Origin: an uncultured Mycoplasmatota bacterium
Lineage (GTDB): Bacteria; Bacillota_I; Bacilli_A; RF39; UBA660
Direction: 5' to 3'
Assembly: GCA_947165285.1 (NCBI GenBank)
Contig: CAMUZS010000002.1
Coordinates: 26,302-90,301 of the forward strand
DNA length: 64,000 nucleotides
Shown: positions 2,097 through 60,950 of the stretch, one piece after another
Layout of the letters: each line of letters begins with the position of its first letter
How positions within the stretch are numbered: the first letter of the stretch is position 1
Made by a program: the position numbers and the translations under genes
The notes under the pieces: generated by a model
Database searches by the model: none
Told to the model about the DNA's origin: nothing
Seen by the model: only the letters and a program-made list of their open reading frames with translations

Positions 2097-2117
2097 AATA
2101 ATACCCCGTTTCTATTA

Positions 2118-4982: not shown

Positions 4983-4984
4983 TT

Positions 4985-8645: not shown

Positions 8646-8654
8646 ATTTATTCC

Positions 8655-8900: not shown

Positions 8901-8904
8901 TAAT

Positions 8905-8938
8905 TATGCTATAATGAAATTAATAATGGAGGCAGTAA
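8905..8938 (+). promoter_or_regulatory. Extended -10 promoter (TGcTATAAT) and GGAGG RBS driving the tandem small-paralogue operon
   Basis: tgctataat at 8907-8915 and ggagg at 8928-8932, 6 nt before the ATG at 8939. The -35 element is poor. Confidence 0.5.
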
Positions 8939-9307: not shown

Positions 9308-9321
9308 TATAATAATTTCCA

Positions 9322-22971: not shown

Positions 22972-23003
22972 ACTCCATTCTTTAATTATTATACATTAAA
23001 TAA

Positions 23004-24725
23004 TTATTTTTTTAAACTATTTATTTTTTTATAAAATTTATTATTCTTAAGTAAATTATTATGATCTCCATCTCCTATTATTTTACCTTTTTTTAAAATA
23101 ATAATTCTATCACTATTTTTTATACATTCTATATCATGAGTAATCATAATTATTGTATACTTTCCTTTTAATTTATCAATTAATTCATTAATTGATTTAA
23201 TAGCATCTCTATCTAAATTATTAGTTATCTCATCAAAAAGTAATATTTTGGCATTTGTTAATAATACTCTTGCAATCGCTAATCGCTGTTTTTCACCACC
23301 ACTAAAATTAGTTGCATCATCATTTAAGATAGAATCATACTTTTTTTCTAAACTATTTATTTTTTTATCTAAACCAACAATTTTACATACTCTTTTAATA
23401 TTTCCAAAATTGTTATCAATTAATTCTAAATTCTCTTTTATTGATAAATTAAATAAAAATGGTTGTTGAGTAACTAATGCTATATTATTTCTTATACTTT
23501 CTTCATCAAGTTCATTAATATCATAATTATCAAGAAAAATTTTTCCACTATTTAAAGAATACATTTTAGTTATTAAAGAAAATAATGTAGATTTACCTGA
23601 TCCATTATCACCTATTATTGTATTAAAAGAATTCTTATTTATTATTAAATTAAAATTACTTATTATTTCATTATTATTATCATATGAAAAACTTACATTC
23701 TTAAACTCAATATTACCTTCTAGTTTCCCAATTTTTTTCTTACCAAAAGATTCCCTATCATAATCTAATATAGAAATAATTCTATTAAATGATAAATCAA
23801 ATTGGCCAAAATTATTAACTAATGTAGATAATCTTGTAGTAAAATTAAACACTTTTCCTCTATTCATTAAAATAAGTATAAAAGTCGAAGTTGTAAGTAA
23901 TTCATTTTTAATTAACAACATAGATAATAATATCATACCACCTAAAAATATAGATTCTAAAAAGTTAGTTATTTTAGAATAGTAATCTAAATAATAATTA
24001 CTTTTATATTCAAGTTCACTAATATTTTCAAAAGAATCATTAGTCTTTTCTTTAAAATTATCTTTTAAATTAAGTGTTTTTATATCCTTAACACCTCTAT
24101 ATATTTGACTTAACAAATTAGAATTATCATCTAATTTTTTTAAATTAATATTTTTATAATACAAACTTTTCTTTATTCCATAATATCTTATTAAAAAAGT
24201 AATAACACAACATATAAAAAAATATAGACCAATAATAGGATTTAAAAAAAGTATAACTATTAATGTACCAAAACTAGAAAAAATAGATAAAAAACTATCT
24301 TTTATTACCGTAAAATAATTAGATATTCTAGATGTATCAGATTGTATCTTATTTAAAAAATTACCCTGACCATAAATATGAAATACATTAATACTTAAAT
24401 TAAGTGTTATGTTACAAACATATTTTCGTATATTAAGCACCATTTTTTTTCTAAGCTTTAAAAATATCTTTGTAGATAATAAATTACATATTACATTTAC
24501 TACCTTTACTAATGCAGATATTATAAGAAATACAATTACTAAATTAAATTCTTTATTTAGAATATTGTTTATCATAATACCACTTATAGTTGGTAAAAAT
24601 ACAGATAAAATAGTAGCAATAAAAGACAATATTAAAAAAATTATAATTTCTTTTTTACAATTATTTAAAAAAAACTTAAATCTTTTAAAATTACTAATAT
24701 ATTTCTTCATGCTAATACCTTCCAA
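23004..24725 (-). CDS. ABC exporter, fused permease-ATPase (MsbA-type half transporter)
   Basis: Six N-terminal TM helices; Walker A IIGDNGSGKSTL; signature FSGGEKQRLAIARVLL; Walker B ILLFDEITNNLD. Confidence 0.85.
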   Translation of the reverse strand: MEGISMKKYISNFKRFKFFLNNCKKEIIIFLILSFIATILSVFLPTISGIMINNILNKEFNLVIVFLIISALVKVVNVICNLLSTKIFLKLRKKMVLNIRKYVCNITLNLSINVFHIYGQGNFLNKIQSDTSRISNYFTVIKDSFLSIFSSFGTLIVILFLNPIIGLYFFICCVITFLIRYYGIKKSLYYKNINLKKLDDNSNLLSQIYRGVKDIKTLNLKDNFKEKTNDSFENISELEYKSNYYLDYYSKITNFLESIFLGGMILLSMLLIKNELLTTSTFILILMNRGKVFNFTTRLSTLVNNFGQFDLSFNRIISILDYDRESFGKKKIGKLEGNIEFKNVSFSYDNNNEIISNFNLIINKNSFNTIIGDNGSGKSTLFSLITKMYSLNSGKIFLDNYDINELDEESIRNNIALVTQQPFLFNLSIKENLELIDNNFGNIKRVCKIVGLDKKINSLEKKYDSILNDDATNFSGGEKQRLAIARVLLTNAKILLFDEITNNLDRDAIKSINELIDKLKGKYTIIMITHDIECIKNSDRIIILKKGKIIGDGDHNNLLKNNKFYKKINSLKK

Positions 24726-24751
24726 TAAAAATATTATACTAAAAATCTAAT

Positions 24752-26353
24752 TTATTTAAAAGATTTTATATTATGAAAATACCATAGTTGAAAAATATAA
24801 TAATTCCATAATACAATTGCTCTTGAATAAACAGGATATTTTTCATAATAATTAATTAGTTTTATTAATTCATCATATTTAAATATTTTTTGTTCATCTA
24901 TATAATCTTTTTTAGTTATCTTTTTTATATCATCTAATAAAAAATCTTTCATCCATTTTTTTATTGGTATACCAAAACCATTTTTTTTATAATTATCAAA
25001 ATATTTTTTATCTATATTATTATATAAAACTTTACTAAAAATATATTTATTATCTCTATTATTATCTATTAAGTCATTATTATATTCCATAAATTTATAT
25101 AATAAATCTACATCATAAAATGGAGTATAATAATTCATTTTTAGATTTTTTAATATATGAATATTTTTGTTTTTAACTTTTTCAGAACCAATATGACCAT
25201 ACAACTCTAAATTAGATACTTCATATGAATATTTTTTATTTAACTTTATTACTTTTCCTTTATAACCCACTAAGTTATCAGAATAAGCAAAACGTCTTAT
25301 TATTGGAACTTGTAAACGTTCACTATAATTTTTAGGAATTCTTATTTTATGAGTATATTTATATAATAATTCTTTATAATATTTAATATTATTAAAACTA
25401 TTATTTATCTTAAATAAATCAAATAATCCATCTACACCTTCACCTGCTAAATAAAAATCATTTTTTTCTTTAATATTTTCCATCATGTAAATACTTGGAA
25501 TAATTGATGGATCTGCAAAAGGTTCATCATAAATTAATGGAATCTTATTAATTATTTTTTTTACATCTTTTGTTTTTAATATAATACTATGATGATTAGT
25601 TCCAATATAATTTGCTATTATTTTTGCATTTTCACTTTCATCTATTTCATCTTCGAAACCTAAAGTATAAGTATTAATTTTATTTTTATAATACTTTGAT
25701 GCAAGTAAACAAAGTAATGTTGAATCTTTACCACTACTTAAAAATATTCCTACCTTAGAATTTTTACTTCCATATTTACAAATACAATTAAATAATAAAT
25801 CTTCTAAATTATTAATATTTTGTTCTTCACTTAACTTATTCTTCTTAATATCTTTAGCTTCTTCACAAATATCAAAATATTTAATTATTTTTATATCATC
25901 ATCATATTTTAATATACTACCTTTATTTAATTTATAAGTATCTAAATAAATTGTATCACTTTCATATATATATGAATATCCTAGATAATTTGCAATAGAT
26001 TGTTTATTAATTTTTAGATTTAAACTACAATTATTTTTAATTAATGATAATTTATTAGAAAAAAACAAAATACCATCTTTATGATAATAATATAATGGTA
26101 AATTACCTAATTTATCTTTAATAATAAATAATTTATTATTATCAACAATAAAAACATTATAATTACCATCAAGATAATTAACAAAATCAAGTGATTTTTC
26201 TTTATATAATTTCTCAATATACTTAATATCACTTAACTTAGTATTATTTATGATATAACCATCAATAAAAATAAAAAGATTATCTAATTTTTGTACAACA
26301 TTATCTATTTTAATTGAAATCTTATTATTTATTATACTTCCTTCAATTTTCAT
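24752..26353 (-). CDS. Second AsnB-family amidotransferase paralogue lacking the N-terminal Cys
   Basis: PP-loop IFLSSGKDSTLLCLLAS and the AsnB-like synthetase domain. The N-terminus is MKIEGSII... with no Cys2. It overlaps the upstream GT4 gene by 11 nt. Confidence 0.7.
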   Translation of the reverse strand: MKIEGSIINNKISIKIDNVVQKLDNLFIFIDGYIINNTKLSDIKYIEKLYKEKSLDFVNYLDGNYNVFIVDNNKLFIIKDKLGNLPLYYYHKDGILFFSNKLSLIKNNCSLNLKINKQSIANYLGYSYIYESDTIYLDTYKLNKGSILKYDDDIKIIKYFDICEEAKDIKKNKLSEEQNINNLEDLLFNCICKYGSKNSKVGIFLSSGKDSTLLCLLASKYYKNKINTYTLGFEDEIDESENAKIIANYIGTNHHSIILKTKDVKKIINKIPLIYDEPFADPSIIPSIYMMENIKEKNDFYLAGEGVDGLFDLFKINNSFNNIKYYKELLYKYTHKIRIPKNYSERLQVPIIRRFAYSDNLVGYKGKVIKLNKKYSYEVSNLELYGHIGSEKVKNKNIHILKNLKMNYYTPFYDVDLLYKFMEYNNDLIDNNRDNKYIFSKVLYNNIDKKYFDNYKKNGFGIPIKKWMKDFLLDDIKKITKKDYIDEQKIFKYDELIKLINYYEKYPVYSRAIVLWNYYIFQLWYFHNIKSFK

Positions 26354-27536
26354 CTAGTACCCTTTCCCATTTTTTTAATATTTTTTCTTTACTAAAATCA
26401 CTAACTCTATTTATTGATTTCTTTTTATAATTATCATATAACTTTTTATTATTTAATAATTCTAATATTGCATCTTTTAATATTATTTCTTCCTTAGTTA
26501 ATTTATAATTAGCTTTATATTTTTTATAATCACATATTGGAACTAATACTCCATATTCTTCAAAAGAAATATTATTAACAAAATTATCATTATCTTTTCT
26601 TATAGATAAAATTTCTTTAGTTCCACCATAACTATCACTAGCAATAATTGGAAGAGAACAAGCAAGAGATTCTAACAATACATTTGGCATTCCTTCATAA
26701 AAAGAATTTAAAACAAATAATTTAGAATTATACATATACTTATATATATTTTCTTTAAAATCAAAAATAAAAACTTTATCATTTAAATTATAATCATTAA
26801 CTAATTTTTTATAATACTCTTTTAATGGTCCCCTTCCAATTAATACTAATTTTATATTGTTATCATATTTTACAATTTCATTAAAAACCCTAATTAAATG
26901 CCATTGACCTTTTTGTTCATTATATCTTCCAACAGATAATATAACATCATTTTTAAAAATATTCATTTCTTCCCTAGATAGTTTTTCTTTTTTTAATTTA
27001 TTAATATTTTCAATATCTAAATAGTTTTCTATAACGACACTATTATTTTTATCCAATTTATATCTTTTAATTTGATCTTCTTCAACACTTTTTGAAACAT
27101 TAATAACTTTATCAACTCTCTTAATATATTTTTTATATAGTTTTATAAATATTTTAAAAATTATAGATTTTGGTAAAAAATGTTTATTAATTCCCATGTA
27201 ATTTCTAGTTGAAAAATATATCTTATCACCAGCTTTGCTTAAATAATTAAATACGCAATATTTCATTATAAAACTAATAGAAATATCAATATTTAATTCT
27301 TTTTTTATTCTTTTTAATTTAGAAATTCCTTTAAACATTACTCTACTTATTCTAAGTTCTTCTATTTCAATAATATTAACATCTGGTATATAGTCGGCAT
27401 TATCTAACGTTCTAACAACTAAAGTAATGTTATATTTATTTTTTAAACTATTGCATAAATTATATATTACTTTTTCAGCTCCACCTGATGTCATATTTCC
27501 AATTAAAAACAATATATTTTTCTTCATGAGAATCAC
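26343..27536 (-). CDS. Glycosyltransferase family 4
   Basis: IGNMTSGGAEKVIYNL N-terminal motif and EGMPNVLLESLACSLPIIAS C-terminal motif. Confidence 0.8.
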   Translation of the reverse strand: MILMKKNILFLIGNMTSGGAEKVIYNLCNSLKNKYNITLVVRTLDNADYIPDVNIIEIEELRISRVMFKGISKLKRIKKELNIDISISFIMKYCVFNYLSKAGDKIYFSTRNYMGINKHFLPKSIIFKIFIKLYKKYIKRVDKVINVSKSVEEDQIKRYKLDKNNSVVIENYLDIENINKLKKEKLSREEMNIFKNDVILSVGRYNEQKGQWHLIRVFNEIVKYDNNIKLVLIGRGPLKEYYKKLVNDYNLNDKVFIFDFKENIYKYMYNSKLFVLNSFYEGMPNVLLESLACSLPIIASDSYGGTKEILSIRKDNDNFVNNISFEEYGVLVPICDYKKYKANYKLTKEEIILKDAILELLNNKKLYDNYKKKSINRVSDFSKEKILKKWERVLDEN

Positions 27537-27550
27537 CTTATCTAATTATA

Positions 27551-28516
27551 CTATTTCTTTTCAATTACTTTATATAATGTTGAACAATTACAACTCTTTG
27601 CATTACAAATAAATTTCTTTGTAATCTTACAAATATTATCATTTAAAATATTACCTAATTTTGTATTTATATTTTCATTACATCTATAAACATCTCCAAT
27701 ATTACTAATTGCTATAGAATTTATTCCAGCATCACAAATAAAACCAGAAGGATTAAAATTATGGGTCTTATTTATAGACATTGAAAATATATTTGTTTTA
27801 GAAAAATAATGTGCTTTACCATCTTTAGTTACTACCATAATTCTATTACTAGGATTTTTATTTAACTCATTTTTTACTTTATCACTTATACTTTTTTTAT
27901 AATTTCTTATAGGTACAAATTCAACTTTAAAGTTTTTAGAATACTTGTTTTTAAAATCCAAATATAAATCATAATCAATATCTTCAATTAATGGTATATT
28001 AATAGTTGTTTTAATATTTTGTTTATTATTTAATATTTTAACTTTATTTATAAACTCTTTCTCATTAGTATAAGCTTTATAATAACTGCAACTAAAATTT
28101 ATTTCTCTATTTTTTAATTTTTTAAACATTTTAACAAATTGTTTTAATATCTTTTTATCCGCAGACATATTAGTTGTAATATTAAATTTAATCAATCCAT
28201 CAAATTTACAATTAATTAATTTATTCATAATATTAAATATATCTTTTAAAATTGTTACTTCACCACCAATTAAGTAAAAATGTAATATATCATATTTTGA
28301 ATTTAAATTATTTTCTATATATAAAATTATCTTATCTAATATATTATTTCTTAAATCTAATGATTCATTTTTTGAATCTTTTATATGCTGTTCTTTATTA
28401 CCTTGAATACAAAAATCACAATTATAATTACATACTCTAGTAACATTCCATCTTATAACATACGTACCCTTTTTTATAATTTTATTTTCTATTCTAACTA
28501 TATCACTATTATTCAT
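27551..28516 (-). CDS. Radical SAM enzyme with C-terminal Cys-rich (SPASM/twitch-like) region, embedded between GT4 genes
   Basis: CNYNCDFCIQG is a CxxxCxxC motif about 30 aa from the N-terminus. The C-terminal third carries seven Cys (FICDAG...YRCNEN...NICKI...FICNAKSCNCS). Its start codon shares a nucleotide with the stop of the upstream GT4 gene. Confidence 0.65.
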   Translation of the reverse strand: MNNSDIVRIENKIIKKGTYVIRWNVTRVCNYNCDFCIQGNKEQHIKDSKNESLDLRNNILDKIILYIENNLNSKYDILHFYLIGGEVTILKDIFNIMNKLINCKFDGLIKFNITTNMSADKKILKQFVKMFKKLKNREINFSCSYYKAYTNEKEFINKVKILNNKQNIKTTINIPLIEDIDYDLYLDFKNKYSKNFKVEFVPIRNYKKSISDKVKNELNKNPSNRIMVVTKDGKAHYFSKTNIFSMSINKTHNFNPSGFICDAGINSIAISNIGDVYRCNENINTKLGNILNDNICKITKKFICNAKSCNCSTLYKVIEKK

Positions 28517-29673
28517 TATATAACCTCATTTATTAGATTTAACCATTTCTTTATTATTACATTTTTACTATAATCTTTTTTTCTAATTGATGATTGTTTA
28601 ATATAATAATTTCTTTTATTGTTATCATTTAATATCATTAATATAGCCTTTGCTAATAATTGTTCTTTTAATGTAATATAATCTTTATTATGTTCATTAA
28701 TAAATGATGGAACTAAAATACCATATTTCTTCTCTTCAATATCATCTACAAACGTATTTATATTTTCATCATCAATTATTTCTATTGAACCACCATATGA
28801 AGACGTTGATATTATTGGTAAATCACAATTTATGGCCTCAATTAAAACATTAGGAAAACCTTCATAATCAGATGCTAAAACCATACACTTAGCATATTTA
28901 AAAAACTTAAAAGGATTTTTATAATATGACATTAAAAATACATTATTCTTTAAATTATATTTATCTATTAAATCATTTAAGTAATCTTTTTGATTTCCCC
29001 TACCAAATATTAATAGTTTTGCATCACTTTTTTCTTTAACTACAATACTCATTGATTTAATAATATGTTCATGTCCTTTATGTTCAACAAGTCTTGCCAT
29101 ATCAATTATCATATTATTGCTGATATATTTTTTTTCGTTTTCTTCTATTTTTTCTTTAATACATTTATTTATTAATGCATCATCACAAAAGTTTTCAATG
29201 ACAACTGTTTTCTTCTTTTTAGAATGATATTTTTTTATTTGATCATCATAAACACTTTTTGAACAACATATAACTTTATCACAAAAAAGTAATGATATCT
29301 TATGATATATATATAAAATAAATTTTTCTTTTTTAGCAGATAAATGATTTCGAACAGATATAAAAACCTTATCCTTACACTTAGACAATATATTATAATA
29401 ATTATATAATGTAGTATAACTTATTGTAACATCTATATTATTTTCTTTTTTTATCTTTTTTAACTTTTTTATAGCCTTTAATCTTTTATGTTTTGAATTA
29501 AATTCCAATATTTCAATAGTTTTTACATTACAATCATAATCGAATGAACACTTATCAGCACATACTAAAATAACATTATGATATTTCATAAGTTCATTTG
29601 CTAAATTAATAATAGATCTTTCAGCACCACCATTATTTAGATTTCCAATTAATAACATAATGTTCTTTTTCAT
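28516..29673 (-). CDS. Glycosyltransferase family 4
   Basis: LIGNLNNGGAERSIINLANEL and EGFPNVLIEAINCDLPIISTS motifs. Confidence 0.8.
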   Translation of the reverse strand: MKKNIMLLIGNLNNGGAERSIINLANELMKYHNVILVCADKCSFDYDCNVKTIEILEFNSKHKRLKAIKKLKKIKKENNIDVTISYTTLYNYYNILSKCKDKVFISVRNHLSAKKEKFILYIYHKISLLFCDKVICCSKSVYDDQIKKYHSKKKKTVVIENFCDDALINKCIKEKIEENEKKYISNNMIIDMARLVEHKGHEHIIKSMSIVVKEKSDAKLLIFGRGNQKDYLNDLIDKYNLKNNVFLMSYYKNPFKFFKYAKCMVLASDYEGFPNVLIEAINCDLPIISTSSYGGSIEIIDDENINTFVDDIEEKKYGILVPSFINEHNKDYITLKEQLLAKAILMILNDNNKRNYYIKQSSIRKKDYSKNVIIKKWLNLINEVI

Positions 29674-29730
29674 AATGTTCTCCCTCTTATATTATACATG
29701 ATAAGATATTTATTTACAAAGATTATATGT

Positions 29731-29763
29731 ATTAAAAAAGTTGATAACTAAAAAGTTATCAAC
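29731..29763 (-). terminator. Rho-independent terminator after the antiporter gene
   Basis: Perfect 10-bp inverted repeat gttgataact/agttatcaac (29740-29763), followed by a U-run on the minus strand, immediately 3' of the stop at 29768. Confidence 0.65.
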
Positions 29764-29767
29764 AAAA

Positions 29768-30733
29768 TTATATAAATAAAATATAGCTATAATAACATAT
29801 AAATACTATTAAAAATATTAATCCTTTTTTTCTTGAAATTTTATGATTTTTTAATGAAAAGATAAATAACAATAGAGCCGCTAAAATCATTGCAATAATA
29901 TCAATATGACCTATCGATATATTTGGAATATTTCCAAATATTGTAACTGGAATTCCAATAACTATTCCTATATTAAAAATATTACTACCAACAACATTTC
30001 CAATTGCTATATCATATTCACCTTTTCTAGTTGCTATTACAGATGTTACAAGTTCTGGTAATGAAGTACCAAGTGCAACAATAGTTAAAGCTATTATTCT
30101 TTCACTAACACCTAGAAGCGAAGCAATTTTAGAAGCACTATCAACAACCATATTACTACCAAATATAATAGCTAATATACCAAAAGCAGTAAACAATAAA
30201 GCTTTTGCTATCGGCATTGATTTTTCATTATCATCATCATCACTAACCTTATTCCTAGCCATTGATATTAAATAATAAATAAATACACTAAAAAATAATA
30301 ATACAACTATTCCATCACTTCTTGTAAACATATTAATAGAGTTTTTATCAAAAACATTATCAAGTAATAATACAGAGAATAATAAAGTAATTAATAATGT
30401 AATAGGCAATTCTTTTTTTACAGTATTATTTTTAACATTTAATGGATGAACTAATGATGCAATACCCAGTATTAATAATATATTTAAAATATTACTACCA
30501 ATAACATTACCTAAAACTATATCACCACTTCGAACAATCATCGATTTAATACTAACTGCAAATTCTGGAGCAGAAGTACCAAAAGCTACAATAGTAAGAC
30601 CAATTAACATCTTTGATACCTTAAAATATTTTGCAACTCCACTAGCACCATCAACAAAAATATCAGCACCCTTAATTAATACAACAAAACCAATGATTAA
30701 TAAAACAATTTGTAATAACATAATTTCCTCCAT
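29768..30733 (-). CDS. Ca2+:cation antiporter (CaCA/YrbG family)
   Basis: Two alpha-repeat motifs (GNVIGSNILNILLILGI; GNVVGSNIFNIGIVIGI); about 10 TM helices. Confidence 0.8.
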   Translation of the reverse strand: MEEIMLLQIVLLIIGFVVLIKGADIFVDGASGVAKYFKVSKMLIGLTIVAFGTSAPEFAVSIKSMIVRSGDIVLGNVIGSNILNILLILGIASLVHPLNVKNNTVKKELPITLLITLLFSVLLLDNVFDKNSINMFTRSDGIVVLLFFSVFIYYLISMARNKVSDDDDNEKSMPIAKALLFTAFGILAIIFGSNMVVDSASKIASLLGVSERIIALTIVALGTSLPELVTSVIATRKGEYDIAIGNVVGSNIFNIGIVIGIPVTIFGNIPNISIGHIDIIAMILAALLLFIFSLKNHKISRKKGLIFLIVFICYYSYILFI

Positions 30734-30822: not shown

Positions 30823-30896
30823 GCAGGTGTGGTTCAACGGTAGAATATAACCTTGCCAAGGTTGAGACGAGGGTTCGACTCCCTTCACTTGCTCCA
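30823..30896 (+). tRNA. tRNA-Gly (anticodon GCC), CCA encoded
   Basis: 74 nt cloverleaf. Acceptor stem GCAGGTG/CACTTGC; anticodon arm TAACC-TTGCCAA-GGTTG; T-arm GAGGG-TTCGACT-CCCTT; ends in tCCA. Confidence 0.9.
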
Positions 30897-49296: not shown

Positions 49297-50565
49297 TTAT
49301 ATTCTATATTCATTATCATTATCACCAGGTTTTAAAACAGTTGAACTCTTTAATTTAACAATTGGAAGAACCCTAAATCTATTAAAAAATCCATCATATC
49401 CTTGATTACATCTATTATAATAAGAGTAACCAGATAATCCTATATTATTATTAAAATCCTTATTTAAAATATGTATATTATAATTACAACCATATTCATA
49501 GACACTAGTAATAATAAATTTATAATCAAAATCTATATTAAATTTTGATATAACATTATCATTATTAAGAAGAGTTTCATAGTCTTCTTCATAAACAGAA
49601 AAACTAGTAAAATATGTATTATTATAACTACTATAATAATTATTTAATAATTCATCTAATTTATCAATATTTCTAATAACAGAATTAGATACAACATATT
49701 CATTAGATAAAGAAGTAGCAGCTAAAATTGGAGTTTTACCTTTAATAATAACGACCCATTTATTTATTTTTCCATAAGTATCATTTCCAGCATTATAAGT
49801 AACAACATCCCCAACATTTAAATCACTTGGTGAATATTGAAATTCTTGCCAACTAGCATATAAAACCAATCCTCTTGAAAAATACTCTTTACCTTTTAAT
49901 ATTTTACCAGATGAATCAATTACTAAATCTCCATTTCCATTTTCTTGAGAATAATAACCTTTAAATGTACCCCTAGTCTTAGAAGGAACTTCTATTTTAT
50001 CTACAGCACGAGTACAACTTTCATCAAAATAAATACCAGTTTTTGTATTAATATAAATTTCAGGAGTACCAACATTTGTTTGAGTACCTGAACTTAATGT
50101 TACCTTAAAAGTATTACTTCTTGAAAAGTCATTATTATAAGATTCAACTTCATTTACAGAAACTACTTTAGCTTTTTTTTCTAATTTAGAACCTTCACCT
50201 TGCCAATAAATCCATACATAATCATTTTCTAATTTCATTTCTTCATTACTAATTAAATCTGATTCATATAAATTCTGTAAAAGAATAGCACAATATATAG
50301 GTCCAGAATTTTCTCTACAATTTGCAAATAATTCCTCTCTTGAATGATTACCAGAAATAATGCTATTTCTTGTTTCTTCATTAGAATCAACAGCAACTAA
50401 AGCCGCTTCCATTACTTTATTTTTATACTTTTCTTCTTTTTCTTTTTCAGTTTTAGTATTTATATTAGTCATATTAATAAGTATTACAGTTGAAGCTAAT
50501 GCTATTAAAGCAATCGTAGCAATTAATTCAACTAAAGTAAATCCATTTTTTTTCATGACTCTCAC
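49297..50565 (-). CDS. Large type IV pilin/pseudopilin-like protein (prepilin N-terminal methylation motif)
   Basis: N-terminal MKKNG|FTLVELIATIALIALAS is a class-III prepilin signal (G-F-T-L-V-E). It is followed by a Cys-containing domain of about 390 aa. No pilB, pilC or pilD is in the window. Confidence 0.65.
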   Translation of the reverse strand: MRVMKKNGFTLVELIATIALIALASTVILINMTNINTKTEKEKEEKYKNKVMEAALVAVDSNEETRNSIISGNHSREELFANCRENSGPIYCAILLQNLYESDLISNEEMKLENDYVWIYWQGEGSKLEKKAKVVSVNEVESYNNDFSRSNTFKVTLSSGTQTNVGTPEIYINTKTGIYFDESCTRAVDKIEVPSKTRGTFKGYYSQENGNGDLVIDSSGKILKGKEYFSRGLVLYASWQEFQYSPSDLNVGDVVTYNAGNDTYGKINKWVVIIKGKTPILAATSLSNEYVVSNSVIRNIDKLDELLNNYYSSYNNTYFTSFSVYEEDYETLLNNDNVISKFNIDFDYKFIITSVYEYGCNYNIHILNKDFNNNIGLSGYSYYNRCNQGYDGFFNRFRVLPIVKLKSSTVLKPGDNDNEYRI

Positions 50566-50613: not shown

Positions 50614-50841
50614 TTATTTAGTAATAAATAATATAAATGATATAACAAAAAATACTATACCAAAAAAAGCAGTTAATCTTGTTATAAGAAGTTCTAAACC
50701 TCTTTCTTTTTGCTTTTGAAACAAAGCTTCATTTCCACCACTAATTATTTGCCCAGAATCACTAGCCTTATTGCTTTGTAGTAAAACTAGAACAATTATT
50801 AATACAGATATTACTAAAAGTGCGATTTCCATTACTCTCAC
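50614..50841 (-). CDS. secG: Preprotein translocase subunit SecG
   Basis: 75 aa. LLVISVLIIVLVLLQSNKASDSGQIISGGNEALFQKQKERGLE matches the SecG consensus (LLQ.GKG.G.S..FG). Confidence 0.8.
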   Translation of the reverse strand: MRVMEIALLVISVLIIVLVLLQSNKASDSGQIISGGNEALFQKQKERGLELLITRLTAFFGIVFFVISFILFITK

Positions 50842-50899
50842 TTCCTTTTCACAATAAATAATTTACCATAAATATAGAAAATTTGCAAGAAAAAAGCAA

Positions 50900-51172
50900 T
50901 TATAGATGTTCTATAATTGCCATATTCTTATCAATTTTATCAATTAAGTCATTTATATCATATTTACTAAAAATTTCTTGAAAATTAGAACTGTCCATTA
51001 AAAACATAGGATAATATGTTTTAAAAATATCTTTATAGTTTGAAATACCCAATTCTTTTAAATATTCAATATTTGATTTAACTACATCTTGATTATTTTC
51101 TAAATCATTTTTTAATTCACTAGGAATACTAATATTTTCTAAATTTTCATCAATAAAACTCATTTTTATCAC
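50900..51172 (-). CDS. Small hypothetical protein with a single mTERF-like helical repeat
   Basis: NIEYLKELGISNYKDIFKTYYPMFLM resembles the mTERF repeat pattern (fL.s.G.s...i.k.yP.il). A weak call. Confidence 0.3.
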   Translation of the reverse strand: MIKMSFIDENLENISIPSELKNDLENNQDVVKSNIEYLKELGISNYKDIFKTYYPMFLMDSSNFQEIFSKYDINDLIDKIDKNMAIIEHL

Positions 51173-53164
51173 CTATTTAACCTTTAAATTTAATATATCT
51201 AAAACTAAATTCATGTTATCTTCAGATAATCTCGAATCATGTAATAAACTAGCTAATAAAACCAATTCCTTACTAGCATCACCAAATATTGATAATAAAT
51301 AATTTATACTTCTATTAACTTTATTTTTAGAAAAAGATATTCCAGAAATAACATAACTATTTTCAGTTTCTTTATATTTACCTTTTATAGTTTTTAAAAC
51401 ACTTACATAATCATCTAAATAATTGTTACTAGCTAATTCAAAATTATCATTTATCTTATCAAGTTCATCAATTAATTCTTCATTATTAAGTAATTTCTTA
51501 GCAACACTATTAGTTTTATCCCTATCTAATATCTCATTTAATTCAACTTTTTTCTCTAAAACTTTATCTAGAACCTCTTGTCTTAATACAAATGATTGAT
51601 AAACACACTTATTATGACTTACAGTTTTATATGGAATTTCACTTCTTTTTAAAAATAACAATCTGTTAACTAATTCAACAATATTGGAAACTAATACTTC
51701 AGGATAATATTTTAATAAGTCTTCCTCACCAACGTTTATTATCATATCCATTCTATTTGCTAACTCTACTGGAGATAAAGTTAAATCCATTAATGCAATT
51801 TTACCATCACTTTTTTTAAGATTAACATGATAATCTAATAATATTTGTAATGATTTTTTAAAATCAACAGGATTTAATGATAATACTGGAGCAAATTTAG
51901 ATATTTGATCATCATCTAAAACAATGTTATTTTCTTTTAACTCAATATAATTTCTTAATAATGGTTGTAATCCTTTTAGATACATTGATAATGGAATTAA
52001 TTTAGGATTAATATCATTTTTATTTAAAACATCAATTAACTTCTCAATATCATCACTAGAATAACTTACCAATATTTCAGGACTTAATTTAATATCATCA
52101 TCAGTTTTTCCTAATTTATCTATAATAAGTGAATATTTATTCTTAAGTGAATTATCACCTAAAATACTAGGATAATCATATACAAAATCAATATTTAAAT
52201 CCTTAGATTTTAGAAATTCAACATTTTCTTTTAATAATTCTTCATTTACATCTAAATCTTCTTCATTAAACTTAGAACAATCAAATCCATTATCAGTTAA
52301 AATTGATTTTATTTTATCAAAATCTCTCATTGGGGCAACATCTACTGGAGATAGTTTAACATCTTCATCATTATCTTCCAATACAATTTCAGAATTATCA
52401 TTAGTATCTGAGTCATCATCAATTTTTGCATCTTCTATAACTGGTTCAACAAAACTTTCTTCTTCGTTTTCTTGAACTTCATCTATTTCATTATTTTCTT
52501 CTTCTTGCTCTTCAACTATCTCTTCATTTTGAACAGTAGTTTCAACTGCATTATCTTTATTTTCAAAATAAGGAATTAAGTCATCCTCTGGGAATAAAAT
52601 GATTTTTGCAGCAGCCATTGCATCACTATCTTCAAAACCAACGTGTGCTAAAGTTTCTATTACTTCGTCTCTTGTTTTATTAATATTACCTGTTTTAGCT
52701 AATTCAATCAATTCAATTAAATTTTCTTGATATCTCTTAGCATCAGATAATTGCATATCTAATTTTGAAAGTTCATCTTCAGCATTCTTAATAACATTAG
52801 TAGAATCATTTACTTTATCAGTTAATTCCTTTATATTACTTTCTAACTCTTCAATTCTTTCAGGAATCTTTTTTAACTCACTTTTTAAATTTTCTAATAA
52901 ATTAACCGAGTTTCCCAATTTTTCAAGTCCTGGCATAAATGTATCAATATTAGCAAATCTTTCATTTAATTCAGAGGCTTTACTAATATCATCTATATCT
53001 TTTTGAATATCTTTTATATTTTTTTCAAAAGATTTCTTTTCTTCCTCTGCATTATTTTTACTATCTTGGGCTCTATCGATTCTCTTATTAAATGATTCTA
53101 AAATTAAACTTTCATCACTAGTTAGATTGTTAATTTTATCTAAAATATCACTAGTACCATTCAT
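51173..53164 (-). CDS. Hypothetical 663-aa protein: N-terminal coiled coil, acidic linker, C-terminal array of mTERF-like helical repeats
   Basis: N-terminal heptad-rich region, then a poly-E/D linker. Repeats of about 30 aa follow: VEFLKSKDLNIDFVYDYPSIL / IIDKLGKTDDDIKLSPEILV / LIDVLNKNDINPKLIPLSMYL. Confidence 0.35.
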   Translation of the reverse strand: MNGTSDILDKINNLTSDESLILESFNKRIDRAQDSKNNAEEEKKSFEKNIKDIQKDIDDISKASELNERFANIDTFMPGLEKLGNSVNLLENLKSELKKIPERIEELESNIKELTDKVNDSTNVIKNAEDELSKLDMQLSDAKRYQENLIELIELAKTGNINKTRDEVIETLAHVGFEDSDAMAAAKIILFPEDDLIPYFENKDNAVETTVQNEEIVEEQEEENNEIDEVQENEEESFVEPVIEDAKIDDDSDTNDNSEIVLEDNDEDVKLSPVDVAPMRDFDKIKSILTDNGFDCSKFNEEDLDVNEELLKENVEFLKSKDLNIDFVYDYPSILGDNSLKNKYSLIIDKLGKTDDDIKLSPEILVSYSSDDIEKLIDVLNKNDINPKLIPLSMYLKGLQPLLRNYIELKENNIVLDDDQISKFAPVLSLNPVDFKKSLQILLDYHVNLKKSDGKIALMDLTLSPVELANRMDMIINVGEEDLLKYYPEVLVSNIVELVNRLLFLKRSEIPYKTVSHNKCVYQSFVLRQEVLDKVLEKKVELNEILDRDKTNSVAKKLLNNEELIDELDKINDNFELASNNYLDDYVSVLKTIKGKYKETENSYVISGISFSKNKVNRSINYLLSIFGDASKELVLLASLLHDSRLSEDNMNLVLDILNLKVK

Positions 53165-53232
53165 AATAGCACACTCCTTTATTATTCTTTTTAATTATAG
53201 CAAATATAATAATAGTTGTAAATCAAAATCTA

Positions 53233-53270
53233 TAAAAAATAAAAACAATTTATACATTTATATAAATTGT
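53233..53270 (-). terminator. Rho-independent terminator of the pheST operon
   Basis: 10-bp stem acaatttata-cattta-tataaattgt (53245-53270), with an A-run upstream on the plus strand giving a U-run on the minus-strand transcript. Confidence 0.6.
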
Positions 53271-53296
53271 CTTTATTTTTTATATTTATATTATTT

Positions 53297-55672
53297 TTAC
53301 TTATCTCTTAATATTGCATTAAATTTTGATGTAACATTGCTTATTATTTTATTAAATACTTCCATTACTTCATCATCACTTAATGTCCTTGTTGGATCTG
53401 AAAAGATTAAATTAAATGCTATTGATTTTTCATCATTTCCAACATTATCTCCAGTATAAACATCAAATATATCAATACTTGTTAATAATCTTCCACCACT
53501 TTTTTTAATAGTATCAATTATTTCTCCAGCTGTTATTTCTTTTTTTACAATAAATGCCATATCTTTAGCTATTTCAGGATATTTTGATGCTTCCTTAAAT
53601 TTAAGTGATTTTACAATAAATTGATTTAATAATGTCATAGAAAATTCACAAACATATACTTCATCTTTTAATAACGCTGGATGAACTCTACCTATAATTC
53701 CAATTTGTTGTTTATCAATTAATATAGATGCACATACGCCAGGATGTAACTCTTTTACTTCTGCTTTTTCAAATGAATATCTATTTTTAAAACCTAAATA
53801 TTTAAATAGATTTTCTAATATTCCTTTAAGAACATAAAAATCATCCTTAACAATTACTTTATTTACTAGATTACTAATATAATTACCTTTTAACAAAATA
53901 GCTACTTTTTGATCCTCTTGATATTTACTATCATAAGTTTTTGCTATTTCGTATATATTAATATCATTAACTTTTCTAGCTTTATTATATTCATATGTTT
54001 GAATTAATGAAGGTATTAAAGATAATCTTAAAGCTTCTTTATCACTGGACATTGGATTAGGTAATAATAACACATCTTTATTGTCATAATTAAACATATT
54101 TGCTTGTTTAGAAGTAACTAATGTATAATTTCTATCTTCATTTAATCCTAAATTTCTTAATCTTCTTGAAATAGATTTTCTGATTGCTACATCACCAACA
54201 TAAACTCCCCTTTTAGTAGGAACTACAGGTAATGTATCTTTTAAATTATTATAACCATATAATCTTCCAATTTCTTCAGCTATATCTGCTTTATTAGGTT
54301 CAACATCTAATCTTCTTCTAGGAATAATTATATGAAAAATTCCATCATTTAATTCATATTCAAAATCTAATTTTTCAAGTTGCTCTTTAACATCATCATC
54401 ATTCATTTCCATACCTAAAACATTATTTAAATCCATAGTTGTAACATCTACTGTTTTTAAAGTTTTATCAATTTTATCATGCAATACTTGACCTGATAAA
54501 ACTTCTCCACTTGCATATTCCTCTAAAAGTGAACAACATCTATTCATTGCCTCAATAGTATATTCATAGTTCAATCCTTTTCCATATCTTTTTGAAGCCT
54601 CTGATTTTAAATTTAATCTAGCTGAAGTTTTAGTTATTGAAAATGCATCAAATATAGCAGCTTCTATAAAAATATTCTTAGTATTATCATCAACTTCAGT
54701 ATTAAGCCCACCCATAACACCTGCAATACATGTAGGATTAGTTCCATCAGTAATAACAATATCATTAGGTGTAAGTATTCTTTCAACTTCATCAAGCGTA
54801 ACTAATTTTTCATTTTCTTTAGCATCCCTTACAGTAACAACTTTTCCAAGCTTATCTGCATCAAAGAAATGTGTTGGTTGACCATATTCAAGCATTACAA
54901 AGTTAGAAATATCAACAACATTATTTATAGGTCTCATTCCAGCTGCAACTAATCTCTTCTTTATCCATTCTGGAGATTCACCAATTTTAACATTTCTAAC
55001 CATTTTTCCTAAGTAATAAGGACATCTTATAGTTTCAACACTTAAACTAATATAATTATTAACATCATCATTAACTTCTTTAAATTCTATTTTTGGATAA
55101 TTAACTCTTTTCCCTAAAACAGTACCTATTTCATGAGCAAATCCAATATGATAATAACAATCATTATTTCTATGTTTATGAACATCCAAATCATATAATG
55201 TATCTTCTAATCCTAAATATTCTAATGGATCCTCACCAACTGGAGCATCACTTGGTAATTCTTCAATTCCTTTATTATAATTTTCTTCATTTTTTTCTTC
55301 TAAACCAAGTTCAAACAAAGCACATATCATACCATTAGATTCTTCACCACGAATTTTACCACTCTTTATTTCAAAATTTCCAGGTAAAATAGCACCAGGC
55401 AAAGCAACAATTACTTTAATACCTTTTCTTACATTAGCTGCACCGCAAACTATTTGAATAATCTCTTTTCCAACATTAACCTTACACACATGTAAATGAT
55501 CAGAATCTGGATGATCAACACATTCAAGGACTTCTCCAATAACTAAATTATCAATATGATTTGAAATAACAGCTTCAACATTAATTCCAGCTTTAGTTAC
55601 TTTTTGAGCTAATTGTTTTAAATCTTCTCCTTCAAGATCTATATAATCTTTTACCCAATTAATTGATATCAT
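53297..55672 (-). CDS. pheT: Phenylalanyl-tRNA synthetase beta subunit
   Basis: The true start is MISINWVKDYIDL, the typical PheT N-terminus with a tRNA-binding domain. B3/4, B5 and FDX-ACB regions follow. Confidence 0.95.
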   Translation of the reverse strand: MISINWVKDYIDLEGEDLKQLAQKVTKAGINVEAVISNHIDNLVIGEVLECVDHPDSDHLHVCKVNVGKEIIQIVCGAANVRKGIKVIVALPGAILPGNFEIKSGKIRGEESNGMICALFELGLEEKNEENYNKGIEELPSDAPVGEDPLEYLGLEDTLYDLDVHKHRNNDCYYHIGFAHEIGTVLGKRVNYPKIEFKEVNDDVNNYISLSVETIRCPYYLGKMVRNVKIGESPEWIKKRLVAAGMRPINNVVDISNFVMLEYGQPTHFFDADKLGKVVTVRDAKENEKLVTLDEVERILTPNDIVITDGTNPTCIAGVMGGLNTEVDDNTKNIFIEAAIFDAFSITKTSARLNLKSEASKRYGKGLNYEYTIEAMNRCCSLLEEYASGEVLSGQVLHDKIDKTLKTVDVTTMDLNNVLGMEMNDDDVKEQLEKLDFEYELNDGIFHIIIPRRRLDVEPNKADIAEEIGRLYGYNNLKDTLPVVPTKRGVYVGDVAIRKSISRRLRNLGLNEDRNYTLVTSKQANMFNYDNKDVLLLPNPMSSDKEALRLSLIPSLIQTYEYNKARKVNDINIYEIAKTYDSKYQEDQKVAILLKGNYISNLVNKVIVKDDFYVLKGILENLFKYLGFKNRYSFEKAEVKELHPGVCASILIDKQQIGIIGRVHPALLKDEVYVCEFSMTLLNQFIVKSLKFKEASKYPEIAKDMAFIVKKEITAGEIIDTIKKSGGRLLTSIDIFDVYTGDNVGNDEKSIAFNLIFSDPTRTLSDDEVMEVFNKIISNVTSKFNAILRDK

Positions 55673-55673
55673 A

Positions 55674-56720
55674 TTAGTTGTCCTCCCTTCTATCAAAAGG
55701 TTTAGTCTCTCTTAAATCAGTATTATAAAAAGTTCTAATATCATTAATTCCATATTTTAACATTGCACATCTTTCTGCACCAAAACCAAAAGCAAAACCA
55801 GACCATATTTTAGGATCATAACCACAACCCTTTAAAACATTGTAATGAACTACTCCAGCTCCACCAATAGTAATCCATCCAGTATTTTTACAAATATTAC
55901 AACCTTTTCCCTTACAATTAAAACATGAAATGTCCATTTCAACAGATGGTTCAGTAAATTGATAATATGATGGTCTAAATCTTGTTACTGTATCATCACC
56001 AAATAATTTTTTACATATTATTGAAACAGTACCCTTTAAATCAGATAATTTAATATTTTTATCAACAATTAAACCTTCAATTTGAGTAAATTGATGAGAG
56101 TGAGTCGCATCATCATCATCTCTACGATAAGCTTTACCAGGACAAATAATTCTTACTGGCTCTTTACCCTCTTTAGATAACATTGTTCTAGCTTGTACTG
56201 GAGATGTATGAGATCTAAGCAATAATTCATCATCTTTAACATAAAAAGTATCTTGAGCATCCCTAGCTGGATGACCTTTAGGAAGACCTAATAATTCAAA
56301 ATTAAACCTATCTTCTTCAAGTTCTGGTCCATCAACAACATCATATCCCATTGACATAAAAACACTTTCAAAATCTTCAATAACACGTTCTAATATATTA
56401 GGAGATCCAACAACAATTTCAGTAGCAGGTAATGAAATATCAATAGATTCCTTTTCTAATTTTTCATTTAATAAATTATTGTTAATAACTTCTTCTTTAT
56501 TAACAATTAAATCAGTTACTTCATTTTTTAAATTATTAACTAATTGTCCAATACTTTTTCTTTCTTCTTGAGAATAATCTTTCATATTCTTCATCAATTC
56601 AGTAATACATCCTGATTTACCAATGTACTTTGCTTTTAAATCAACAATGTCTTGTAACTTATTAACATTATCTAAATCACTCTTTAGATTTAACTTAATT
56701 TGATTTATTTTTTCTTCCAT
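55674..56720 (-). CDS. pheS: Phenylalanyl-tRNA synthetase alpha subunit
   Basis: The true start is MEEKINQIKL. Class II core (FRPSYYQFTEPSVEMD; GGAGVVHYNVL). The ORF-track N-terminal extension runs into the T-box leader. Confidence 0.95.
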   Translation of the reverse strand: MEEKINQIKLNLKSDLDNVNKLQDIVDLKAKYIGKSGCITELMKNMKDYSQEERKSIGQLVNNLKNEVTDLIVNKEEVINNNLLNEKLEKESIDISLPATEIVVGSPNILERVIEDFESVFMSMGYDVVDGPELEEDRFNFELLGLPKGHPARDAQDTFYVKDDELLLRSHTSPVQARTMLSKEGKEPVRIICPGKAYRRDDDDATHSHQFTQIEGLIVDKNIKLSDLKGTVSIICKKLFGDDTVTRFRPSYYQFTEPSVEMDISCFNCKGKGCNICKNTGWITIGGAGVVHYNVLKGCGYDPKIWSGFAFGFGAERCAMLKYGINDIRTFYNTDLRETKPFDRREDN

Positions 56721-56740
56721 AACAATCTTCCTTTCAAAAA

Positions 56741-56995
56741 AATAAAAAACCCAGAATATGGGACGACAAAATGCCGCGGTACCACCCAAATTCTAGATTT
56801 ACTAGCACTTTAATAGAATAACGCCCTATTAGCGATTATAAACTCCATTTATTGAAAATTCATTATTAAATTATATTATATTGTCTCACCAAATCAATAT
56901 ATCTCTGTAAAAATAAATATAATAACTACTTTATAAATATCAACATTTATTTATATGGATATTATAACACATTTTATTATAAAATAAAGAAAAAA
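56741..56995 (-). promoter_or_regulatory. T-box riboswitch leader (Phe specifier UUC) with terminator, upstream of pheST
   Basis: Minus strand: AGTAAA box, a tTTCt specifier region, the conserved T-box aatttGGGTGGTACCGCGGc, then the terminator hairpin cccatattctggg plus a U-run. Confidence 0.8.
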
Positions 56996-57005
56996 ACTGA
57001 AAATA

Positions 57006-58287: not shown

Positions 58288-59154
58288 TTAAGCAGCTTTT
58301 TTTCTGCCTTTACCTTTTTTCTCTTCTACTTCATTTTCTTCTTCTTTTGTGAAATCTTCAACATTATCTACATGAACAAAACCTTCATCAACATTTTGTG
58401 CGGATTCAATTTCGTCAACAGAATCTTCTTTTATATCTTCACTAGGAAATTCATTAGATTCTTGAATAGGAGTAATATCTTCAGAATATTCACTAACACT
58501 ATCATCTAGATTAGTTTCTTCAACAGGAGGTAATACAGCTTCTTCTACTGGAGCATATTCTTCCTTTGCTTCCTCTAATTCAGCTTTAGTTTCTTTAGCA
58601 TTATTTAACTCATCTTCTAAACCTTTAGCTAAATCTTCTAAACTATCTGTAACAATTTGAGTTGGTGCTTCTTCAATATCAACAACTTTATCTTCACTAT
58701 AATTATTTTCTTCAGAATTTTTAAATACTTCGAAATCATGATTAAGAATTGCTTGTGCTCTATCTAAAGTTTGTCCTCCAAGATTTAAATCATTATCAAT
58801 AATTTTAACTAAATCATTAGATAATTCATCATATGAATCAACACCTAGTGGATCTGTTAAATCTTTTTTAATACTTTCTAAATCTTCCATTTCAACTCTT
58901 AAATTATCAATTGCATTATTTAATTCATCAGTATCCTTTTGAACTTCAATTTGATTAGCAACACTTGAATATGCATGAGCATTTTTTAAATTACCAATAC
59001 GATATTCGCATATTTTTACTAAATGATCAACATCCTTTGCATAATATTCTTTAAAGCAATTGTTTAAAATATCAAGTTTCTTTTCTTGATCATTTAAAAG
59101 CATAATTTGTTTTTCTAAAGTATTTTTAATTTCTTCTATTCCCATATCTAACAC
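58288..59154 (-). CDS. Hypothetical acidic coiled-coil protein with basic C-terminal tail
   Basis: 288 aa. An N-terminal helical region; D/E-rich; ends KKGKGRKKAA. Confidence 0.45.
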   Translation of the reverse strand: MLDMGIEEIKNTLEKQIMLLNDQEKKLDILNNCFKEYYAKDVDHLVKICEYRIGNLKNAHAYSSVANQIEVQKDTDELNNAIDNLRVEMEDLESIKKDLTDPLGVDSYDELSNDLVKIIDNDLNLGGQTLDRAQAILNHDFEVFKNSEENNYSEDKVVDIEEAPTQIVTDSLEDLAKGLEDELNNAKETKAELEEAKEEYAPVEEAVLPPVEETNLDDSVSEYSEDITPIQESNEFPSEDIKEDSVDEIESAQNVDEGFVHVDNVEDFTKEEENEVEEKKGKGRKKAA

Positions 59155-59593: not shown

Positions 59594-60544
59594 CTAATCG
59601 TTAAATTTAAGACCCATCTCTTTAACTTTATCAATTACTTCTTTAAGAGATTTTTTACCTAAATTTCTAATCTTAGTTACTTCTACTTCTTTCTTATTAA
59701 TTAAATCTTGAACTGTATTTACTCCAGCTCTTTTTAAACAATTATATGCTCTTACAGAGAACTCAATTTCTTCAATAGGAGTTTCTAATGTTCTAGTAAT
59801 AGTATCTACTTTCTTTTCAGCCATCATACCAGAGATGTTAGAAATATTATTTAAATCAGATACAATATTTAAATGTTCAATTAAAATTTTTGCTGATAAT
59901 GCCATAGCTTCTTCAGGAGTCATAGCACCATTAGTATAAACATCCATTATTAATTTATCAAAATTTTCATTTTGTCCAACACGAGTTGGTTGTGGATCAA
60001 ATGCAACTCTTTCAATTGGAGAATAAATAGAATCAATTGCAATTACACCTGCTTGATCTCCAAATAATTTTTGATTTTGTTTAGAGTCAACATATCCTCT
60101 ACCATTACTTACAGTCATTTCCATTTCAATAGATCCACCTTTTACAAGGTTACAAATTACTAAATCAGGATTAATAATTTCTAAATCTGAATCACATTTA
60201 ATGTCTCCTGCTAAAACTGCTCCTTCTTTAGATGCAGTTAAAGTAACTTTTTTAACTTCATCTCTATCACTTGCATGATTTAAAATTACAACACTTTTTA
60301 GATTAAGAATAATTCCTGTTACATCTTCAACTATTCCATCTATTTTTTGAAATTCATGCATAACACCTGTAATTTTAACTGATGTTATTGCACTACCTGG
60401 AAGAGAAGAAAGCATAACTCTTCTTAATGCTGTACCTAAAGTTTGAGCATATCCTCTTTCTAAAGGTGCAAGTTCAAATCTTCCATAGTGATTATTTTCA
60501 ATGTATTCTGTTATTTTGTATTCTGGTTTTTCAAATTTTATCAT
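59594..60544 (-). CDS. rpoA: DNA-directed RNA polymerase alpha subunit
   Basis: The true start is MIKFEKPEY... An alpha-NTD and a C-terminal alpha-CTD (EFSVRAYNCLKRAGVNTVQDL). The ORF track adds an 18-codon upstream extension. Confidence 0.95.
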   Translation of the reverse strand: MIKFEKPEYKITEYIENNHYGRFELAPLERGYAQTLGTALRRVMLSSLPGSAITSVKITGVMHEFQKIDGIVEDVTGIILNLKSVVILNHASDRDEVKKVTLTASKEGAVLAGDIKCDSDLEIINPDLVICNLVKGGSIEMEMTVSNGRGYVDSKQNQKLFGDQAGVIAIDSIYSPIERVAFDPQPTRVGQNENFDKLIMDVYTNGAMTPEEAMALSAKILIEHLNIVSDLNNISNISGMMAEKKVDTITRTLETPIEEIEFSVRAYNCLKRAGVNTVQDLINKKEVEVTKIRNLGKKSLKEVIDKVKEMGLKFND

Positions 60545-60563
60545 ATCTCTACCCCATCTCTTT

Positions 60564-60950
60564 CTAAATTCTTGGTCTCTTTGGTGGACGACAACCATTA
60601 TGTGGAATTGGTGTTACATCAGTTATTGATGTAATTTCAAGTCCTGCAGTTGAAAGTGCACGAATAGCATTTTCTCTACCTTGACCCATACCTGTAATAA
60701 TAACTTCAACTTTTTTAACACCAGCTATATCCATAGCATTTTTAGCAGCAGCTTCTGCAGCCATACCAGCAGCATATGCTGTCTTTTTCTTAGAACCTTT
60801 ATATCCAATAGTTCCAGATGATGCCCATGCAATAGCATTACCATCTTTATCACTTATAGTAACTAAAGTATTATTAAAACTTGTAGTAATATGTGCTTGA
60901 GCTTCTGGAATATTTTTCTTAACTTTTCTTTTTCTTCTATTATAAGCCAT
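60564..60950 (-). CDS. rpsK: 30S ribosomal protein S11
   Basis: ...[16 protein letters not shown]...[11 protein letters not shown]... matches the S11 consensus. Confidence 0.95.

Follow-up and report, generated by a model that had tools for sequence, protein, structure and literature searches.

The 64,000-nucleotide stretch analysed here (the window; positions 26,302 to 90,301 of contig CAMUZS010000002.1, assembly GCA_947165285.1) stems from an uncultured Mycoplasmatota bacterium and carries, between pheT and secG, a conserved two-gene unit. The larger product is predicted to combine a coiled-coil hairpin and an acidic linker with a solenoid resembling the mTERF (mitochondrial transcription termination factor) fold, and the smaller one is related to the start of that solenoid. 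The gene order on the minus strand is pheS, pheT, an open reading frame (ORF) of 663 amino acids (aa), a small ORF, secG, a gene for a 422-aa protein with a prepilin motif, rnr and smpB. An earlier note on this DNA had placed two adjacent genes between pheT and secG, and both ORFs were found at the positions it gave; its length for the large protein is correct, whereas the small protein comprises 87 aa and not 90. The elements of the unit and its flanking genes are the following.

51173..53164 (-), large gene, 663 aa; ORF with a GGAG site, 60 close homologues and a full-length AlphaFold2 (AF2) model
50900..51163 (-), small gene, 87 aa; ORF with 74 homologues, sub-threshold matches to PF02536 and an hhalign alignment to the large domain
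53194..53222 (-), promoter-like site TTTACA-17-TATAAT with extended TG; 11 of 12 consensus matches
50895..50921 (-), intrinsic terminator hairpin; consensus scan, 12 pairs with TTTTTTCTT
53234..53280 (-), hairpin and T-run 3' of pheT; RNA folding, likely the pheST terminator and upstream boundary of the unit
53297..55696 (-), pheT; ORF list
55674..56789 (-), pheS; ORF list
50614..50841 (-), secG; ORF list

The large gene begins with the ATG at 53164, 10 nucleotides behind a GGAG (53177-53174), and ends with a TAG stop codon at 51175-51173. The small ORF had been listed mechanically as 90 aa (50900..51172), counted from a GTG that abuts this stop codon. Its true start is almost certainly the ATG at 51163, because this codon is preceded by TAGGTGA and all of the 74 homologues (74/74) start there; this ribosome-binding site shares bases with the large gene's stop codon.

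The promoter region of its own that had been proposed for the pair, behind the pheST terminator, is represented by a promoter-like site, and that terminator by a likely hairpin. The site TTTACA-17-TATAAT is the best promoter-like site of the region, judged by its consensus match only, and an equivalent TTTACT-17-TATAAT, also of the extended-TG type, precedes the large gene of a distant locus, L003. The hairpin behind pheT has a folding free energy of -17.2 kcal/mol (z -7.7), and none of 200 shuffled sequences folded as well. Its 21 base pairs join an A-tract to a U-tract, and termination could occur from either direction; the consensus terminator scan missed this hairpin because its stem is almost entirely A-T.

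The terminator at the downstream end of the unit is formed by the small gene itself: both arms and the loop are built from its last six codons (A/T-I-I/V-E-H/Y-L) and the stop codon, giving 11-12 base pairs followed by a T-run. Of 22 distinct related 3' ends, most fold into this hairpin, those of lineages only about 30% identical in the large protein among them, and the copy in L003 is found at 10540-10564. At least two loci (L007 and L026) are without it and have instead a separate hairpin with a T-run just downstream. In an alignment of 18 sequences 95.5% of the cells are paired, compared with 28-56% in controls with a slid 3' partner, and compensatory double changes occur at two pairs (G-C to A-U and A-U to G-C, four sequences each). 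The conserved C-terminal peptide A-I-I-E-H-L is thus doubly constrained, by the protein and by the RNA hairpin, since the terminator lies in its codons. Taken together, these elements give the pair the look of a bicistronic unit that is complete in itself, from promoter to terminator.

Predicted structure of the large and small proteins

The full-length AF2 model of the 663-aa protein was obtained from a 38-sequence alignment, with a mean predicted local distance difference test score (pLDDT) of 80.9. It divides the protein into four regions, namely a coiled-coil hairpin, a helical module, an acidic linker and a C-terminal domain, the latter consisting of repeats and a terminal subdomain.

52691..53164 (-), aa 1-158, N-terminal helix and long antiparallel coiled-coil hairpin; AF2
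52559..52690 (-), aa 159-202, small helical module (INKTREEVVETL.HVGF...AAK.ILFPEDDLIPYF); conserved family-wide
52319..52558 (-), aa 203-282, acidic disordered linker; composition and pLDDT
51581..52318 (-), aa 283-528, seven to eight degenerate mTERF-like three-helix units; AF2
51176..51580 (-), aa 529-663, C-terminal subdomain of helices and a beta-hairpin, with conserved FSKNK.NR.NYL; AF2

Helices 20-69 and 100-158 of the modelled coiled coil fold back together, with the apex near a conserved PGL. The helical module (helices 165-175, 179-190 and 196-201) terminates in a conserved LFPEDDLIPYF; residues F177 and F191 are near-invariant in 68 diverse members, and a motif L-[IM]-F-P-[ED]-x-G-L is visible in the trimmed alignment. 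The linker contains 32 Asp/Glu and 4 Lys/Arg (net charge -28, isoelectric point (pI) 4.05), its residues 203-276 have pLDDT values below 50, and both its length and its sequence differ among homologues. Two beta-hairpins are present in the AF2 models, one within the repeat region (strands 513-516/519-522) and one in the C-terminal subdomain (603-606/609-612). No catalytic or known domain was found with Pfam, NCBIfam, PADLOC, PHROGs or the PDB sequence profile. The single-sequence matches in Pfam and NCBIfam were discarded as coiled-coil noise, and isolated matches of single members to the Pfam families MukF_M, Pex14_N and ABC_tran_CTD as chance.

The C-terminal domain was also modelled alone by AF2 on 22 sequences, which gave a pLDDT of 92.1 and a predicted template modelling score of 0.86. 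A unit of 30-35 aa, composed of one long and two short helices, is repeated seven to eight times over aa 283-528, and the predicted domain thereby displays what defines the mTERF fold, tandem three-helix units of about 30 aa arranged in a superhelical solenoid. The units are highly degenerate in sequence (block-against-block hhalign E only 0.004-0.09), so that their repeat character is mainly structural; the DNA contains no tandem repeat with a corresponding period. P-x-hydrophobic-L occurs at the last helix in six of the eight units (YPSIL, SPEIL, NPKLIPL, APVL, YPEVL and IPY). The mTERF signature, with published positions 8, 11, 18 and 25, has been described as a conserved proline with regularly spaced leucine or hydrophobic residues (Roberti et al. 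2009, quoted in PMC11417379), and the element of the present units may correspond to it.

The four best Foldseek matches of the C-terminal domain are all mTERF proteins, with a probability of 0.98 for MTERF1, and mTERF proteins occupy all top ranks in two independent structure-search methods. The next class is formed by the DNA-binding repeats of TAL effectors and BurrH. The Foldseek matches are weak (E 0.2-0.5) and their template modelling scores (TM-scores) low, as is expected when the superhelical pitch differs. Searches with sequence profiles gave a fainter picture. The Pfam family PF02536 (gathering threshold 23.1 bits) was matched below threshold by 2 of 22 C-terminal domains (best E 1.1e-4), by 3 of 68 diverse full-length members (E of at least 0.0021) and by 8 of 34 small proteins (best E 3.9e-5), among which any other family appeared in at most 3 of 34. 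P0176, the large protein of L007, reached 17.4 bits; no score reported for a homologue attains the gathering threshold, and the two proteins of the window are without any PF02536 match. When the C-terminal-domain profile was compared with all PDB sequences, no mTERF chain was retrieved, the sole match being a chance one to ribosomal protein S20 (E 0.29). The link to mTERF at the sequence level is no more than suggestive. We accept the predicted fold as mTERF-like, yet do not file the family as a member of PF02536.

The small protein is strongly conserved, with the invariant motif FLMD..F..F.KY..DL..K..KN, and in distant lineages longer versions begin with an extra L..LGF..EEI element. In hhalign its profile pairs with units one and two of the large C-terminal domain (E 0.0025; 28% identity across 71 columns). 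The small protein can best be understood as an independent relative of the solenoid start. The picture drawn in the earlier note, of a coiled coil and an acidic linker joined to mTERF-like repeats in the large protein and of a small protein with related sequence, is supported by the models and profile alignments. An assignment of the repeats to TPR, HAT or another alpha-solenoid class by profile searches, with no mTERF match, had been named beforehand as its refutation; the outcome was the opposite, with mTERF on top, no competing fold class and none of the TPR, HEAT, HAT or PPR solenoids among the top ranks of the structure searches.

mTERF proteins are regarded as a eukaryotic, organelle-specific invention of unclear origin. 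With the organellar proteins (PF02536; human MTERF1, MTERF3 and MTERF4, and the mitoribosomal mS93 and mL114) the present family shares degenerate three-helix units of about 30 aa in a curved solenoid, apparently a proline with which the last helix of most units begins, and the weak, recurrent PF02536 signal. It differs from them in being bacterial and chromosomal, in uncultured Bacilli, instead of nuclear-encoded and organelle-targeted, and in being strongly acidic, not basic, as judged by composition only. It further adds the coiled-coil hairpin, the helical module, the acidic disordered linker and the C-terminal beta-hairpin subdomain, and is always accompanied by the gene for the small two-unit partner. 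The TAL effector and BurrH-type repeats are two-helix, near-identical units with a basic DNA-binding surface and score clearly below mTERF proteins in the structure search. For the coiled coil, the antiparallel hairpins of the HP0958/CT398 type and the prefoldin type (COG1579) are counted among the closest known systems.

Bacterial mTERF examples had been called uncharacterised in the first description of the locus, a statement that is outdated since the characterisation of pTERF in 2024, the only literature on prokaryotic mTERF-like proteins that was found (PMC11417379, Nucleic Acids Res 2024). This prokaryotic mTERF-like family, with pTERF1 (MBQ3414883.1) as a member, has 3-11 near-identical tandem units, with a period of 35 aa implied by the table identifier TR_35 of pTERF1, and both pTERF1 and pTERF2 bind specific double-stranded DNA with nanomolar dissociation constants (PMC11417379). 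The two families have in common their origin in metagenome-assembled genomes of Bacillota from gut and rumen and their three-helix mTERF-like units, and both are without detectable sequence similarity to eukaryotic mTERFs. The present family is set apart, by description, through its degenerate units, coiled coil, acidic linker, partner gene and net negative charge; this acidic composition would speak against sequence-specific binding of double-stranded DNA. Two members that were checked (MBR1416963.1 and MBE6159308.1) are not pTERF1 and are annotated only as hypothetical proteins.

Distribution and genomic context of the pair

Word-indexed searches returned 60 close homologues of the large protein and 74 of the small one, all of them unnamed or "hypothetical". 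An exhaustive profile search of 1.84 billion representatives yielded 210 clusters (50% identity) with E <= 1e-3, of which 129 have E <= 1e-10; with conservation on this scale the two ORFs are no product of chance. For the longer matches listed, the domain forms the C-terminal end of proteins of about 580-870 aa. All carrier species-representative genomes are uncultured metagenome-assembled genomes from gut or rumen, and their records bear the labels Bacilli, Bacillota, Erysipelotrichaceae, Tenericutes or "Mycoplasma sp. CAG:956"; only one clade of uncultured, very A+T-rich Bacilli from gut and rumen carries the family. By tblastn, neither 50,697 phage records nor 72,556 plasmid records gave a match. 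At least some of the family's hosts appear to be spore-formers and not Mollicutes-like, because L003, from the distant lineage with the order ruvAB, pair, pcrA, encodes SpoIIIAH, GerE and a Germane-domain protein at 220-1937.

In about 35 of the clusters the proteins are shorter, and the match, at their C-terminal end, is restricted to profile positions 2-115. In L026, as also in L027 and L028, the large gene is split after unit 3 into two ORFs (8001-9407 and 9418-10215 in L026), the first encoding 468 aa with the coiled coil, the linker and units 1-3, and the second 265 aa with the rest of the domain. Recoding of UGA as tryptophan was considered for the shorter proteins and rejected: the L026 gene has a TAG stop followed by a ribosome-binding site and a new ATG, and is a true gene fission.

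To survey the genomic context, 25 related loci and the window were searched by tblastn with reference proteins. Wherever the sequence of a locus reaches far enough, L026, L027 and L028 included, the large gene has the small one directly behind it; the large gene of L007 escapes tblastn because of its divergence and was recovered as the profile match P0176. Within the clade of the window (large protein at least 56% identical) the order is pheS-pheT-(ABC transporter)-pair-(pilin-like genes)-secG-rnr-smpB. In the more distant lineages sampled, pcrA, which encodes a UvrD-family helicase, and an NTP_transferase gene come directly after the pair at no fewer than 14 distinct loci. Eight of these pcrA-linked loci have ruvA-NT5C-ruvB immediately upstream of the pair, and in L007 and L026 ligA comes next after pcrA and the NTP_transferase gene. 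This pcrA-linked arrangement is probably ancestral. The pair's insertion in a conserved housekeeping neighbourhood, as first described, accordingly holds for the clade of the window, whereas distant relatives carry it between ruvB and pcrA. Even where pcrA follows, the pair is a separate transcription unit, given its own conserved terminator and the promoter-like site in L003.

Two observations concern the pilin-like genes. The 422-aa protein between secG and rnr (49297-50565, minus strand) has a prepilin-type N-terminal methylation motif and weak ComGE/ComGF-like matches. At 10320-14075 of L001, the pair is separated from secG by the gene for a 730-aa protein with a faint N_methyl match and by three ORFs without annotation.

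Conserved acidity and possible function

The mTERF proteins that have been characterised use a positively charged surface to bind DNA or RNA. The large protein of the window, with a pI of 4.42 and a net charge of -63, is the most negative of the 41 ORFs in the window (median pI 6.24). Its repeat region has a pI of 4.57, and its whole C-terminal domain a pI of 4.85 and a net charge of -16. Among the 68 diverse members this domain has a median pI of 4.70 and a median net charge of -24 (range -35 to 0), and the median pI of the small subunit is 4.5. The nucleic-acid-binding function that the mTERF resemblance implied is not simply transferable, since the proteins are strongly acidic, unlike canonical mTERFs. 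A second very acidic ORF of the window (58288-59145, minus strand; 285 aa, pI 4.15, net charge -49), without Pfam match, is located downstream of rpoA (59594..60598).

Our preferred interpretation, to which we assign a probability of about 45%, is that of a non-enzymatic pair of mTERF-fold adaptor proteins linked to DNA maintenance. The large and small proteins would form a complex in which the small protein docks on or caps the solenoid and the coiled coil serves as an oligomerisation or reach arm, the whole acting as a binding adaptor. The role in DNA maintenance is suggested by the distant, probably ancestral context ruvA-NT5C-ruvB-pair-pcrA-NTP_transferase-(ligA), and the split of the large gene after unit 3 in one lineage is counted in favour of a modular build. 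Because both subunits, the solenoid included, are strongly and consistently acidic, naked nucleic acid in a basic groove, the situation in MTERF1, seems a less likely main ligand than a basic protein or a complex of protein and nucleic acid. The complex might modulate a helicase or recombination protein, possibly in part by nucleic-acid mimicry.

Several points weigh against this adaptor interpretation. To our knowledge, every characterised mTERF-fold protein binds DNA or RNA, and a few basic positions are conserved (K343, K451, K455, R501, K615 and R618), of which those of K615 and R618 are basic in 88-94% of the 68 members; a local patch for binding nucleic acid could arise from these positions in spite of the net charge. 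The clade of the window has the pair between pheT and secG-rnr-smpB, away from pcrA, and L014, L015 and L017 have no pcrA match in the flank covered. Synteny with pcrA is moreover not co-transcription, as the pair ends in its own terminator, which weakens a strict operon argument while the synteny itself stands.

Regulation of a PcrA/UvrD-type helicase or of RuvAB-type recombination by the acidic complex, through direct binding or nucleic-acid mimicry, is a more specific proposal and, as it stands, a rather improbable one. If true, it would represent a new function for the mTERF fold and a new kind of bacterial genome-maintenance factor, and the fold would have diversified in Bacillota independently of, or before, its organellar use. 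The approximately 200 clusters with fixed chromosomal positions and a constant partner and architecture show that the fold is established in a bacterial lineage, and the consistent acidity points to a class of ligand that has yet to be described for it. The pair is also a candidate for a core function in uncultured small-genome gut Bacilli that may be linked to PcrA, RuvAB and LigA.

A solenoid that binds specific double-stranded DNA in the manner of classical mTERF and pTERF proteins, as a transcription terminator, repressor or polar replication-fork barrier, is a possibility we consider unlikely. In that case the coiled coil would serve for dimerisation, and the acidic linker would be a tail that mimics DNA and inhibits the protein itself. 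The nanomolar DNA binding of pTERF1 and pTERF2, the sole mTERF-like proteins characterised from prokaryotes (PMC11417379), points in this direction, as do the rank of the TAL effector and BurrH repeats next to mTERF, the synteny of the pair with pcrA, ruvAB and ligA, and the several conserved basic residues. It is opposed by the acidity of the repeat domain itself, and not of the linker alone, across the diverse members, and by units that are degenerate, unlike the near-identical pTERF repeats.

A role in RNA or ribosome biology comparable to that of MTERF3, MTERF4, mS93 and mL114, in which the proteins would bind rRNA or structured RNA or chaperone basic ribosomal proteins, seems to us quite doubtful. 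The translation- and RNA-related neighbours in the window's clade (pheST, secG, rnr and smpB) would agree with it, and an acidic surface would fit basic ribosomal proteins. That context is nevertheless limited to one clade, the widespread one being pcrA/ruvAB; the pair is transcribed separately from those neighbours, as the promoter-like site and terminators suggest, and the acidic domain speaks against direct RNA binding. We give similarly little weight to convergence, by which the protein would be a generic alpha-solenoid scaffold of cell division, chromosome organisation or the envelope without any mTERF link. Consistent with such a scaffold are PF02536 scores that always stay below the gathering value, a PDB-sequence profile search without mTERF chain, moderate fold scores, the frequency of acidic coiled-coil proteins among bacterial scaffolds and the pilin-like genes adjoining the pair in the window's clade. 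Against it, mTERF tops two structure-search methods from whose leading ranks TPR, HEAT and PPR are missing, PF02536 is the most recurrent Pfam match of the small protein (8/34, others at most 3), and the proline-containing third helix appears to fit the mTERF motif description quoted in PMC11417379.

That the pair is mobile or defence cargo inserted in a housekeeping region, as its apparent insertion between conserved genes and weak PADLOC matches to DruC, JetC, LmuB and ZorA might suggest, deserves hardly any credence, given that these matches all fall in the coiled coil (aa 5-232, E 5.5e-5 to 7e-3) and represent coiled-coil noise, that phage and plasmid records gave no tblastn match, that syntenic positions are stable across lineages and that the base composition of the pair agrees with that of its flanks.

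Other features of the window

The region upstream of pheS (56790-57005) contains no T-box or other Rfam family at gathering thresholds, and a tRNA-Gly(GCC) at 30823-30896 on the plus strand is the sole RNA gene detected anywhere in the window. Two stretches of the window, 1-7000 and 23000-30000, have a G+C content of 17-20%, compared with 22-30% elsewhere, and encode mostly very basic proteins (pI 9-9.7), several of them with glycosyltransferase-like N-termini. These low-G+C stretches may be surface-polysaccharide loci.

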